A program made the translations under genes and the position numbers. This document shows positions 1,985-5,936 of a DNA stretch of 64,000 nucleotides, piece after piece; position 1 is the stretch's first letter, and each line of letters starts with the position of its first letter. Source of the stretch: Escherichia coli (GTDB lineage Bacteria; Pseudomonadota; Gammaproteobacteria; Enterobacterales; Enterobacteriaceae); the NCBI RefSeq assembly GCF_044324785.1, contig NZ_CP172127.1; one strand, given 5' to 3'. Under the pieces are notes generated by a model. That model saw nothing but the letters and a program-made list of their open reading frames with translations. It made no database searches and was not told where the DNA came from.

Positions 1985-2503
1985 AGCACATCCTGATAAT
2001 CCAACCGTACAACACTTATGCTCATTTCATCATCAATCCGTAATCAAAACCGCTGACCTGGACGAGTTACGATGACCTGACAGAAGTATCAGACGTCTTC
2101 TGCGGTTTCTATGATAGAGCAATTCTGTGGCGGATATTAAGATAACGGGTATCTGTTCTTTAATGATGCCGCAAAAAATGGAAAGTTAAGAAAGCCTGGC
2201 GTGGTGAAAAAATACACTTGCCTCAATACTGGATATTTAAACAGGTCTGAAGATGCTGTCACGATTAGGGTGCGGAAAAAGGAAGCGTAAATAAGAACAA
2301 TCAAAAGTACGACGGCAATGGGTTGATTGACAAGGGTATTTTTTAAGCTATGAATCAGCGCCATTTATCACAGAATAGACTTTTACTCTGAATAAATGGG
2401 AGGGTGACTTGCCTCAATATAATCCAGACTATAACATGCCTTATAGTCTTCGGAACATCATCGCGCGCTGGCGATGATTAATAGCTAATTGAGTAAGGCC
2501 AGG

Positions 2504-3199
2504 ATGTCAAACACGCCAATCGAGCTTAAAGGCAGTAGCTTCACTTTATCTGTGGTTCATCTGCATGAGGCAGAACCTAAGGTTATCCATCAGGCGCTGG
2601 AAGACAAAATCGCTCAGGCCCCCGCATTTTTAAAACATGCCCCCGTTGTACTCAACGTCAGTGCACTGGAAGACCCGGTAAACTGGTCAGCGATGCATAA
2701 GGCGGTTTCGGCAACCGGTTTGCGGGTTATTGGCGTAAGTGGCTGCAAAGATGCGCAACTTAAAGCCGAAATTGAAAAAATGGGGCTGCCTATCCTGACG
2801 GAAGGAAAGGAAAAAGCGCCGCGTCCAGCTCCCGCACCGCAGGCTCCAGCGCAAAATACAACGCCGGTCACAAAAACGCGTTTAATAGATACCCCGGTGC
2901 GTTCCGGTCAGCGTATTTATGCTCCACAATGTGATCTGATTGTTACAAGCCACGTTAGCGCTGGGGCCGAATTGATTGCCGATGGTAACATTCATGTCTA
3001 TGGCATGATGCGCGGTCGTGCGCTGGCAGGGGCAAGTGGTGATCGGGAAACGCAAATATTTTGTACGAACCTGATGGCGGAACTGGTGTCCATCGCAGGT
3101 GAATACTGGCTGAGTGATCAAATCCCAGCAGAATTTTATGGCAAAGCGGCGCGACTGCAGTTAGTCGAAAACGCTTTGACCGTTCAACCGTTAAATTGA
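2504..3199 (+). CDS. minC: Septum site-determining protein MinC
   Basis: Track ORF starts at TTG 2489; ATG at 2504 gives [14 protein letters not shown]..., the known 231-aa MinC. Confidence 0.97.
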
Positions 3200-3222
3200 T
3201 CCCTTTTTAACAAGGAATTTCT

Positions 3223-4035
3223 ATGGCACGCATTATTGTTGTTACTTCGGGCAAAGGGGGTGTTGGTAAGACAACCTCCAGCGCGGCCATCGCCACTGGT
3301 TTGGCCCAGAAGGGAAAGAAAACTGTCGTGATAGATTTTGATATCGGCCTGCGTAATCTCGACCTGATTATGGGTTGTGAACGTCGGGTCGTTTACGATT
3401 TCGTCAACGTCATTCAGGGCGATGCAACGCTAAATCAGGCGTTAATTAAAGATAAGCGTACTGAAAATCTCTATATTCTTCCGGCATCGCAAACTCGCGA
3501 TAAAGATGCCCTCACCCGTGAAGGGGTCGCCAAAGTTCTTGATGATCTGAAAGCGATGGACTTTGAATTTATTGTTTGCGACTCCCCGGCAGGGATTGAG
3601 ACCGGTGCGCTAATGGCACTCTATTTTGCAGACGAAGCCATTATTACCACCAACCCGGAAGTCTCCTCAGTACGCGACTCTGACCGTATTTTAGGCATTC
3701 TGGCGTCGAAATCACGCCGCGCAGAAAATGGCGAAGAGCCTATTAAAGAGCACCTGCTGTTAACGCGCTATAACCCAGGCCGCGTAAGCAGAGGTGACAT
3801 GCTGAGCATGGAAGATGTGCTGGAGATCCTGCGCATCAAACTCGTCGGTGTGATCCCTGAGGATCAATCAGTATTGCGCGCCTCTAACCAGGGTGAACCG
3901 GTCATTCTCGACATTAACGCCGATGCGGGTAAAGCCTACGCAGATACCGTAGAACGTCTGTTGGGAGAAGAACGTCCTTTCCGCTTCATTGAAGAAGAGA
4001 AGAAAGGCTTCCTCAAACGCTTGTTCGGAGGATAA
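3223..4035 (+). CDS. minD: Septum site-determining ATPase MinD
   Basis: 270 aa; deviant Walker A GKGGVGKT near N-terminus. Confidence 0.98.
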   Translation: MARIIVVTSGKGGVGKTTSSAAIATGLAQKGKKTVVIDFDIGLRNLDLIMGCERRVVYDFVNVIQGDATLNQALIKDKRTENLYILPASQTRDKDALTREGVAKVLDDLKAMDFEFIVCDSPAGIETGALMALYFADEAIITTNPEVSSVRDSDRILGILASKSRRAENGEEPIKEHLLLTRYNPGRVSRGDMLSMEDVLEILRIKLVGVIPEDQSVLRASNQGEPVILDINADAGKAYADTVERLLGEERPFRFIEEEKKGFLKRLFGG

Positions 4036-4038
4036 GTT

Positions 4039-4305
4039 ATGGCATTACTCGATTTCTTTCTCTCGCGGAAGAAAAACACGGCCAACATTGCAAAAGAACG
4101 GCTGCAGATTATTGTTGCTGAACGCCGTCGCAGCGATGCAGAACCGCACTATCTGCCGCAGTTGCGTAAAGATATTCTTGAGGTCATTTGTAAATACGTA
4201 CAAATTGATCCTGAGATGGTAACCGTACAGCTTGAGCAAAAAGATGGCGATATTTCTATTCTTGAGCTGAACGTGACCTTACCGGAAGCAGAAGAGCTGA
4301 AATAA
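4039..4305 (+). CDS. minE: Cell division topological specificity factor MinE
   Basis: 88 aa, [28 protein letters not shown]...; 3 nt after minD stop. Confidence 0.98.
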
Positions 4306-4332
4306 GCCCGCTGTAAAAGCGCATTTATCTTC

Positions 4333-4362
4333 AAGGCAGAGTCATCTCTGCCTTGAGTTTTT
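4333..4362 (+). terminator. Rho-independent terminator of the minCDE operon
   Basis: aaggcagag / ctctgcctt 9-bp stem with tcat loop, followed by gagttttt. Confidence 0.8.
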
Positions 4363-4574
4363 CATCCCCCTCATCCACGTTTGATAAGAGCGGCGAGTAT
4401 TCTTGCTGATGCTACTCATTGCTTCCCCCCCTTTACACCTTAATGCCGTTCCCCCCACACAGAACAAAATGTTTATACCTGGCTGAGTAAATAACCTTAT
4501 TGTTAGTATGGGTATGCTGGGAGATGATAACCCCGCAATTTCATTATTCATTGTTCTCCCATAGGATGAGGTTT

Positions 4575-4600
4575 CCCGCCGTAACTGGCGGGCTTTTTTT
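4575..4600 (+). terminator. Orphan intrinsic-terminator-like hairpin
   Basis: cccgcc-gtaact-ggcggg followed by ctttttttg; no annotated gene ends here. Confidence 0.5.
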
Positions 4601-4670
4601 GCCGCAGAATTTTCCCTTTTAACACCCTGTAAACGAAAACTGCGCCGAAGCGCAGTTTAATCGTTGATAG

Positions 4671-5114
4671 TCAGAACGACCAGTTCGCACCAGCCACCGC
4701 GTTCCACGGGGATTCCACACCGGCACCATGGCTATACCCCACCCCGAGATGCCCGCTTAACGAACTGCTGAATGAGGCTTTAATACCTGCCTGATATATT
4801 CCACGTCTGCCCGACAAATCATTGACAAAATTACCGTCATTATTCACTTTCACCCGGTTATCATCGACAAATTCTTTGCGCACAGCCATTTTCAGCCACG
4901 GCTCAACTTCCATGCCGTTCCCCAGACGCATGTTGTAACTCAGCGTTGCACCCAGTTCACGATATATACTGCGGGTATCGACTGATTTCGATTCCATGCC
5001 ATTGGATAAATGATAGTAGCGTCTAAGTGACCTTAGCTCTGCTGCAACATCATCCCGCAGGCACCAGACCAGGGGATTGATCCTGAAGAGGCAGCGCAAG
5101 TGTATTGTGTTCAC
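4671..5114 (-). pseudogene. ycgI: Autotransporter beta-barrel C-terminal remnant (ycgI-like)
   Basis: C-terminal ~90 aa (...GIKASFSSSLSGHLGVGYSHGAGVESPWNAVAGANWSF) resemble the end of an autotransporter translocator, terminal F; N-terminal part of the ORF is not protein-like and has no signal peptide or passenger. Confidence 0.65.
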
Positions 5115-5416
5115 CGCTCATCAAAGACATCATGATGAAATAATGATATCCCGCATAAGAAAGAGGCATTTTTTAAACGCAGTGCGCTGAAATGTAGTTG
5201 GATAAAAAAATCACTCTTTTCTGATAATACTGTTGTACGCTTATTTTTCGACAATGAGGCCGTCGACAAAATAAAATGACTAATGTAATCGTTGCTGATG
5301 AATATCTTCTGCTCACATAAAAATCACACAATAATATTGATAAATCAGATTATCTTACCTTTACAACATTGTATTAACAGTCAATGACACTTCTTGAATA
5401 AAAATATTGTCAATCA

Positions 5417-5590
5417 ATGAGTTATTTCTCATTTGAGATTATTCTTATTCCCGTAAAAAACATAATTCCTATCATCACAGTCACGCTCATTTTGAATTAT
5501 CTGAATAATAGCGAGCGTTCTTTAGTTAAGCAGATCTTAATTGAAGACGAAATTATTGTGTGTGCAACTTACTTAATACCGGACATCTAA
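5417..5590 (+). CDS. Candidate small hydrophobic protein, 57 aa (possibly ymgI)
   Basis: ATG 5417 to TAA 5588-5590 gives [57 protein letters not shown]; below the ORF-track size cutoff; the gene name is a guess from length and position. Confidence 0.4.
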
Positions 5591-5591
5591 G

Positions 5592-5936
5592 TTGAAGAAA
5601 AAAATACTTGCCTTCGGGCTTATCTCAGCATTGTTCTGCTCCACGCCAGCGATGGCGGATATGAATCGCACCACGAAAGGTGCATTGCTAGGCGCAGGCG
5701 TTGGTTTACTTACTGGCAATGGTGTTAATGGCGTACTGAAAGGTGCAGCTGTTGGCGCTGGTGTTGGTGCAGTAACAGAAAAAGGCCGCGACGGTAAAAA
5801 TGCGCGTAAAGGTGCAAAAGTGGGTGCCGCCGTTGGTGCTGTCACTGGCGTTCTGACCGGCAATGGCCTCGAAGGGGCGATTAAAGGTGCCGTGATTGGC
5901 GGTACGGGTGGTGCAATTCTGGGTAAAATGAAATAA
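5592..5936 (+). CDS. ymgG: Glycine-zipper protein YmgG, 114 aa, apparent TTG start
   Basis: [22 protein letters not shown] signal then G/A-rich repeats ([11 protein letters not shown]...). Confidence 0.8.

Follow-up and report, generated by a model that had tools for sequence, protein, structure and literature searches.

The systems closest to the element described here are stand-alone small RNAs (sRNAs) of the Hfq type, such as MicA, RybB and MgrR, sRNAs derived from 3'UTRs, such as CpxQ, SdhX and MicL, antisense pairs of the SymR/symE kind and tandem or fail-safe terminators, in which, as at rrnB T1-T2 or where an intrinsic terminator is backed up by Rho, a second terminator follows the first on the same strand. 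Downstream of the minCDE operon of E. coli, the hairpin termed T2 here is likewise a second same-strand terminator, with a Rho termination region between it and the operon's own terminator (T1) and convergent transcription beyond. Unlike the second terminator of rrnB, it stands ~240 nt from the first rather than adjacent to it, and constraint peaks on the 40 nt before its stem. No bacterium has been annotated more heavily than E. coli K-12, and still this stretch of its chromosome is unannotated, belongs to no Rfam family and goes unmentioned in the searchable literature; to our knowledge, conservation of the degree reported below is normally seen only in functional RNAs. The analysis was carried out on a window of 64,000 nt of E. 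coli DNA, in whose coordinates all positions are given unless otherwise stated. The reading we favour, at a probability of roughly 0.38, is that T2 forms the 3' end of an Escherichia-restricted + strand small non-coding RNA module that is silent or Rho-limited in laboratory growth.

The genes minC, minD and minE occupy 2489-4305 on the + strand in the list of open reading frames (ORFs), with minE, the last gene of the operon, at 4039-4305, as also in the RefSeq annotation of strain N3 and MG1655. T1, the intrinsic terminator of the operon, was found by the terminator scan at 4330-4364 (+ strand), where a 12-bp stem (4330-4357) folding at -19.8 kcal/mol is followed by T5; the original prediction that min already has a terminator of its own was therefore correct. 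Beyond T1 follow, on the same strand, a C-rich, G-poor tract delimited by GC skew (4363-4480), a 40-nt core, GCAATTTCATTATTCATTGTTCTCCCATAGGATGAGGTTT, that alignments show to be invariant and that contains an anti-Shine-Dalgarno-like UCUCCC (4535-4574), the T2 hairpin CCCGCC-GTAACT-GGCGGG, identified by terminator scan and folding (4575-4592), and the T2 tail of C plus T7 (4593-4600). On the minus strand lie T3, recognized from sequence, folding and alignment as the terminator hairpin of a convergent autotransporter gene or its remnant (4637-4659), and the remnant itself, a ycgI-type autotransporter beta-barrel pseudogene (4671-5114) present in the ORF list and in the annotation of N3 and MG1655. 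T3 folds at -13.7 kcal/mol on the minus strand, its region includes a 20-nt run identical between E. coli and E. albertii, and the E. albertii T3 is also predicted to be a minus-strand terminator. By coordinate mapping, the conserved core and T2 correspond to MG1655 1,223,978-1,224,043 on the complement strand. The minE-ycgI interval carries no annotated feature in N3, MG1655 or the matches listed among ~5,300 RefSeq E. coli genomes, so that the absence of an annotated gene at T2, as originally claimed, holds in all of these.

The minE-ycgI spacer of the window (4306-4670) is 100% identical to that of strain N3 and is otherwise unusually divergent, with identity of ≥99% in only 47 of 5,418 E. 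coli records and mostly of 90-95%; compared with K-12, the C-rich tract of the window has a 7-nt deletion and a 1-nt insertion. Inside the ycgI remnant, TCATTATTCACTTTCACCC (+ strand, 4839-4858) resembles the stretch TCATTATTCATTGTTCTCCC of the core (4541-4560), with 10 identical bases followed by a similar tail. The two share polarity, so that neither is a pairing partner of the other, and the likeness may be a coincidence.

A pattern scan of the + strand returned the T2 stem-loop, CCCGCCGTAACTGGCGGG (4575-4592), with six G-C pairs, or seven when the closing G-T is counted, and a tail consisting of C and then seven T residues at 4594-4600, bearing out the predicted hairpin and T-run ~270 bp past minE. 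The hairpin folds at -12.3 kcal/mol. Since the minus strand has no T-run beyond the hairpin, T2 is unidirectional, and in terms of sequence (a GC-rich stem-loop followed by a U-tract) it is an intrinsic terminator. Five terminator-like sites were counted in the 2.5-kb region against 2.5 +/- 1.7 in shuffles; the T2 motif alone is within chance, and its conservation exceeds chance.

The stem varies between lineages. Alleles of Nissle-type and MS 110-3-type strains, which we presume to belong to phylogroup B2, carry mainly G4588A plus one or two extra T, giving T8-9. On the + strand RNA, G4588A turns a stem pair into C·A with no compensating change, with a folding energy of -5.1 instead of -12.3 kcal/mol and failure in the terminator scan; on the minus-strand RNA it is a tolerated G·U wobble. 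The 40-nt body is intact in these B2-type alleles despite the damage to the stem, so that the constraint on the body is more than that on a terminator. In E. albertii, a G to T change in the stem gives -9.5 kcal/mol and the predicted terminator is retained, with T7-8 directly after the stem, changes at the junction (GC to GT or TT) having placed the U-tract against it. The T-run after the hairpin is kept in all three lineages. The B2-type alleles also carry T4641A and G4650A in T3, which on the minus strand, where T3 acts, give a U·U mismatch and a G·U wobble, respectively; G4650A is of the same + strand G-to-A type as the change in T2.

Conservation of the core and hairpin was assessed between and within species. 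Between E. coli and E. albertii, positions 4535-4591 form a 57-nt identical run in a surrounding spacer of 50-54% identity, and this run exceeds nearly all identical runs of the minCDE coding region in the same comparison. Taking the third codon positions of minCDE (77.5% identity between the two species) as the neutral benchmark, the chance of a 57-nt run is ~5e-7. Within E. coli, the 66-nt unit 4535-4600 is identical in 4,143 of 5,316 records (78%), the rest (~22%) differing by 1-3 bases, whereas its 66-nt flanks are identical in 98 and 127 of these records (~2% each). When the window was aligned with MG1655 and five diverse E. coli, positions 4380-4483 proved variable and rich in indels and ~4520-4600 nearly invariant. 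Among 42 distinct E. coli-type alleles, taken from 75 metagenome contigs and from genomes (the metagenome search pattern prescribed positions 4551-4571, which are uninformative for the alleles it retrieved), polymorphism affected 1 of 40 sites in the body (4535-4574) and 3 of 18 in the stem (4575-4592), as against 36 of 121 in the upstream flank (4363-4483) and 13 of 36 in the downstream flank (4601-4636). A second conserved patch, TGAGTAAATAAC (4484-4495, assigned to neither strand), is invariant in the 42 alleles and has one change in the E. albertii alignment. Because the sequence is invariant, no covariation is available for structure. As expected of an sRNA gene, the body is conserved above its flanks in the absence of coding constraint; judged from these alignments, purifying selection clearly acts on the T2 module, a genuine element that annotation has missed and that is confined to these two species.

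Across 5,316 E. coli genomes the T2 element has a median copy count of one, and the block is also present in E. albertii, beside an open autotransporter frame. Searches of 80 minE loci with blastn (word size 7) and nhmmer revealed no conserved block beside minE in ~70 other Enterobacteriaceae species; conservation of the hairpin across the family, proposed as a check on the original prediction, was thus borne out for E. coli and E. albertii and failed at the minE loci of other genera. In most Enterobacteriaceae (Salmonella, Klebsiella, Enterobacter, Kluyvera and others) minE is followed by convergent ORFs of ~375 and 517-572 aa, taken as rnd and fadD by size alone, and in several Citrobacter by a different convergent gene of 305 aa. 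In E. whittamii, Escherichia sp. E1V33 and one divergent "E. coli", an unrelated spacer of ~175 nt leads from minE to ymgI, ymgG and ymgD. There is a synteny break at minE (loci L010-L089), Escherichia carrying ymgI/G/D, with or without the autotransporter, where most Enterobacteriaceae have the rnd/fadD-sized ORFs. The autotransporter frame of E. albertii (3652-5826 of locus L010) is open for at least 724 aa and apparently intact, while in E. coli nothing is left of it but ycgI, the C-terminal beta-barrel remnant; both species share the three-hairpin order T1/T2/T3.

About 2% of E. coli genomes are without the T2 element, through deletion or IS1 insertion. A ~1-kb segment (4361-5326) that spans the C-rich tract, core, T2, T3, ycgI remnant and ymgJ segregates as a single block, an indel polymorphism observed at three loci (L009 2554-2560, L008 1544-2257 and L139). 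Specifically, E. coli O150:H6 strain FEX669 has a clean deletion of 4361-5326; strain 2017.02.04CC carries IS1 at ~4524 and has lost the core, and one metagenome allele has a deletion from just past the T2 T-run into ycgI. A dispersed repeat or mobile-element fragment (REP, ERIC or IS end, or phage) was rejected since the element is single-copy with no phage or genuine plasmid copy. No viral contig matched it, and the plasmid matches, all with the whole spacer and all in non-mobilizable E. coli records, some of 4.8-4.9 Mb, look for these reasons like chromosomal DNA filed as plasmid. Rfam 15 gave no family at or near its gathering score (best overlap, anti-hemB with 12.9 bits against a gathering score of 49.5, E = 9.5). 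The searchable literature returned no paper containing the sequence of the element or mentioning it; the sole paper on the locus naming ycgI with minE is a filamentation screen, which notes an unnamed ORF there.

Published transcript data from MG1655 were examined at the equivalent positions. Term-seq 3' ends at 1224224/5 correspond to T1 (Adams et al. 2021, PMC7815308 supplement), and for the T2 equivalent (~1223978) the tables, which cover LB at OD 0.4, LB at OD 2.0 and M63 and leave out 3' ends with bicyclomycin, list none (PMC7815308). By the measure of 3' ends formed in vivo, then, T2 did not behave as an intrinsic terminator in this one strain under the three conditions, and the 3' end anticipated near 4600 did not appear at 1223978. 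The original prediction was to be judged by such 3' ends and by conservation of the hairpin, and the two outcomes disagree, since conservation is strongly positive and the 3'-end data are negative.

The same study reports an "orphan" Rho termination region at MG1655 1224064 on the minus strand (Rho score 24.9, p 3.6e-67; PMC7815308, supplementary file 2), which by coordinate mapping is window ~4514 (4505-4525, + strand), 21 nt upstream of the conserved core. DirectRNA-seq reads in the 800 nt upstream and downstream of 1224064 numbered 230 and 18 in untreated cells and 293 and 571 with bicyclomycin (PMC7815308). The ~30-fold rise in reads past this point (18 to 571) shows that polymerases reach the stretch when Rho fails, the 800-nt totals being unable to tell a stop at T2 from run-on or T1 read-through from a start near 4535. 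The Term-seq and bicyclomycin data together indicate that the + strand past T1 is transcribed, that Rho normally ends this transcription just before the core and that, once Rho is inhibited, RNA covers the core or extends beyond it. The C-rich tract, with a GC skew of -0.35 to -0.57 and 44 C versus 25 G over 4363-4513, is by its composition likely to be a Rho utilisation (rut) region for transcripts passing T1. With bicyclomycin, reads were more numerous downstream (571) than upstream (293) of 1224064, which suggests more leakage at T1 than its appearance implies or an extra Rho-suppressed start nearby.

The supplements of Hfq CLASH studies, searched by coordinate and flanking-gene name, held no entry for the minE-ycgI spacer, and the same was true of other text-searchable TSS, TTS and RIL-seq supplements. 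A discrete short transcript, as expected of an sRNA, was not seen in untreated cells, where there is no Term-seq 3' end and the 800-nt window holds 18 reads, and the candidate RNA appears to be silent or nearly so in laboratory K-12 cultures. The sRNA of ~65 nt originally proposed is therefore in line with the conservation and with a conserved 5' edge (4535) at the expected start, but not with the expression evidence from K-12, which is negative. A duplex-energy target scan of the 64-kb window gave long gappy duplexes and no clear match at an initiation region.

The sigma70-like pair proposed for this transcript, a -35 TTGTTA (4500-4505) and a -10 GATGAT (4523-4528) on the + strand, is present with its 17-nt spacer, but matches the consensus at 8 of 12 positions, below the scan threshold of 9/12, and its -35 is not conserved, being polymorphic within E. 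coli and TGGTGA in E. albertii. The -10 hexamer is AATGAT in E. albertii, with only A(-11) and T(-7) conserved across species. The 5' edge of the conserved run (4535) falls 7 nt downstream of the -10-like hexamer, where a start would be expected, and polymorphism is densest in the 19 nt preceding this hexamer, as is usual for promoter spacers. A PhoP-box-like TGTTTA-N5-GGTTGA (MG1655 equivalent of 4470-4486) with a possible -10 TATTGT (4498-4503) was set aside, the -10 being polymorphic at four positions and the box poor in E. albertii. The direct repeat, TGTTTA-TGCCT-GGTTGA in K-12-type alleles, is weaker in strain N3 and E. albertii. No convincing sigma-E, sigma-32, sigma-54 or FliA motif was found by eye, and a 7-bp helix of UGGGAGA (4518-4524) with UCUCCCA (4555-4561) was rejected for its lack of conservation in E. 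albertii. On the minus strand, a promoter-like pair TTTACA-N16-AATTCT lies just upstream of the putative leader considered below; its -10 part is invariant in E. coli, and the pair is not conserved in E. albertii. The AT-rich spacer of E. albertii has on its minus strand a good sigma70-like pair of its own, ATGACA-N16-TATGAT (10/12; 3355-3382 of locus L010), facing minE, which could yield an antisense transcript.

Small ORFs overlap the conserved run on both strands. The + strand ORF of 18 aa (ATG 4508 to TAG 4564) was rejected because its start varies (ATG, GTG or GTT) and no Shine-Dalgarno sequence stands ahead of it; the frame is closed upstream by TGA at 4484-4486 and ends at TAG 4562-4564, 10 nt before the hairpin. 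A leader-peptide attenuator built on this ORF (up to 18-21 codons) was also rejected, since its start codon lacks conservation and the gene beyond it, in this window as in E. albertii, is convergent. The minus-strand ORF (4342-4560, from the strong Shine-Dalgarno GGGAG at 4560-4556 and the ATG at 4551-4549) encodes 69 aa here, 36 aa in most E. coli and 39 aa in E. albertii. It yields 27 peptide variants of 15-69 aa in 44 alleles, with frameshifts, and was rejected as a conserved protein, the peptide being hypervariable, with frameshifts and no family match. Genome annotations contain only sporadic "hypothetical protein" calls for it, and it is not in the supplement of translated novel small ORFs from K-12 ribosome profiling (Stringer et al.). 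Its N-terminus, MNNEIAGLSSP, is fixed at the nucleotide level, and strains of the species differ widely at codons 12-19 (S/R, I/V, S/P, I/T/M, R/G/W/V), a variability that could reflect neutral drift or diversifying selection. A type I toxin-antitoxin or SymR-like pair fits the geometry and was rejected on the 27 variants in 44 alleles, the frameshifts and the lack of a family.

The locus thus combines sequence constraint and a unidirectional terminator architecture with an absence of coding constraint, and we infer that an RNA is made at all. The candidate RNA would be ~66 nt long (4535-4600) and would consist of the 40-nt invariant body GCAAUUUCAUUAUUCAUUGUUCUCCCAUAGGAUGAGGUUU, the GC hairpin and the U-tail. 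Its start at ~4535 could be that of a primary transcript from the weak -10 GATGAT, probably dependent on an activator; alternatively, the RNA may be processed from min read-through that is normally absent as Rho stops polymerase ~20 nt upstream. The invariant body, with its UCUCCC stretch, would pair with target mRNAs. Such an sRNA is favoured by the 57-nt identical run within a 50-54% identical spacer and by the 4,143 of 5,316 identical records for the unit versus 98 and 127 for its flanks. It would also give a role to the T-run, kept in every lineage, tightened to the stem in E. albertii and lacking on the minus strand, and to the sharp 5' edge at the predicted +1 with its polymorphic "spacer" upstream. 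Neither overlapping ORF is under coding constraint, and the strand is transcribed, as seen from the rise from 18 to 571 reads on Rho inhibition. Against it, no transcript was observed in Term-seq under three conditions or in the Hfq CLASH supplements, the promoter is weak (8/12) with a -35 that is not conserved, and the stem is weakened in many strains (~22% of records differ, in the sampled alleles mainly by G4588A). Moreover, the element is dispensable, being missing from ~2% of genomes, covariation offers no support and the duplex scan of the 64-kb window found no target. A more specific version, which we consider rather improbable, is a Rho-gated regulatory RNA, in which transcription of the body and T2 would depend on relief of Rho termination in the C-rich tract that follows T1, the ~66-nt RNA then reporting Rho activity and base-pairing with targets. 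Relief might come under stress, through Rho antagonists or with perturbed translation, and the stable RNA might arise from min read-through or from the adjacent weak promoter; it may also be the antisense partner of the overlapping minus-strand initiation region.

The readings were ranked with the + strand sRNA, most likely condition-specific or Rho-limited, first, followed by a purely fail-safe terminator, a minus-strand leader or antisense pair and a relic or DNA site. A fail-safe role is not mutually exclusive with an sRNA. On its own, it would make T2 a third layer of min termination, T1 stopping most polymerases, Rho (~4514) those that escape into the C-rich tract and T2 the remainder, so as to shield the convergent autotransporter gene from antisense transcription with no RNA function, a reading that comes second and that we hold to be possible but doubtful. 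The order T1, C-rich tract, published Rho region and T2 is exactly the layout it predicts; reads past the Rho region increase ~30-fold with bicyclomycin; it accommodates the lack of a 3' end at T2 without bicyclomycin; and E. albertii, with its open convergent autotransporter frame, retains T1, T2 and T3. A terminator requires only a stem and a U-tract, however, and the strongest constraint is on the 40 nt upstream of the stem, whereas the stem itself bears tolerated damage (C·A in B2-type alleles, G to T in E. albertii). Furthermore, the gene to be protected is a pseudogene in most E. coli, in which the core is still invariant, and with bicyclomycin there are 571 reads downstream versus 293 upstream, totals that are silent on a stop at T2. 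The backup terminator offered as an alternative in the original prediction has consequently gained support from the Rho region between T1 and T2 and leaves the invariant 40 nt upstream unexplained; if T2 were a back-up terminator only, these would still need explaining.

Another possibility, which seems unlikely to us, is that the constrained strand is the minus strand, where a 5' leader (stem-loop 4592-4575) would precede a ribosome-binding site and first codons (GGGAG-N4-ATG, 4560-4549, to +17) and translation rather than the peptide would matter; a variant given the same joint weight is a cis-antisense pair in which a + strand RNA covers this initiation region, as in SymR/symE. The conserved run reaches from -40 to +17 about a Shine-Dalgarno/ATG of good spacing, the frame is open for at least 36 codons in most alleles, and G4588A, a C·A mismatch on the + strand, is a G·U wobble in minus-strand RNA; the TTTACA-N16-AATTCT pair just upstream, with its -10 part invariant in E. 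coli, points the same way but is not conserved in E. albertii. Third codon positions hold 10 of 15 variable sites, a pattern that fits the + frame equally because both frames share third positions. This reading is further weakened by the lack of protein-level constraint, of a family and of an entry in the list of Stringer et al., by the lack of any gene downstream on that strand, where only antisense minE follows, and by the conserved T-run, which as a minus-strand A-run would be left without a role. Least probable, in our estimate, is a relic or DNA-level element, i.e. a leftover gene 3' end and terminator from insertion or rearrangement of the autotransporter islet, or a protein-binding or recombination site. 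The position of the element at a synteny break and inside the ~1-kb indel segment (4361-5326) would suit this, as would the gene-end-like TAG of the + frame (4562-4564) 10 nt before the hairpin, but a relic is expected to decay neutrally and the block is invariant amid diverged surroundings, and the closure of the + frame by TGA 4484-4486 means that no larger gene is left. As for a DNA site, 57 invariant bases far exceed a typical protein-binding site, and the element is single-copy with no phage or genuine plasmid counterpart.

If T2 does end a true sRNA, it would be a young regulator confined to E. coli and E. albertii, beside the cell-division operon min and an autotransporter islet, and, if perhaps made only on Rho failure, a concrete case of Rho-dependent termination gating the output of a non-coding RNA. 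Compared with SymR/symE pairs, the candidate + strand RNA would likewise overlap the Shine-Dalgarno sequence, start and first codons of the minus-strand ORF and have its own start inside that ORF; in contrast to them, the ORF product here is hypervariable, not clearly hydrophobic and often frameshifted, with nothing toxin-like about it. Like the 3'UTR-derived sRNAs CpxQ, SdhX and MicL, the candidate lies downstream of an mRNA on the same strand, and its release by processing is possible, with an AA/UUU RNase E-like site at 4538/4539; those sRNAs share the terminator of the parent gene, whereas the min mRNA ends at T1, with a Rho site standing between T1 and the element. The Hfq-type sRNAs MicA, RybB and MgrR differ from the candidate in that it is known from sequence alone, has a weak promoter that is not conserved, a range limited to E. 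coli and E. albertii and no Rfam family, and has a stem damaged in B2-type alleles. The candidate is nevertheless like them in its size of ~65 nt and intergenic, stand-alone position, in its single-stranded conserved 5' body, GC hairpin, U-tail of at least seven residues and U residues just before the stem, and in being conserved from the putative +1 to the terminator while its flanks drift.
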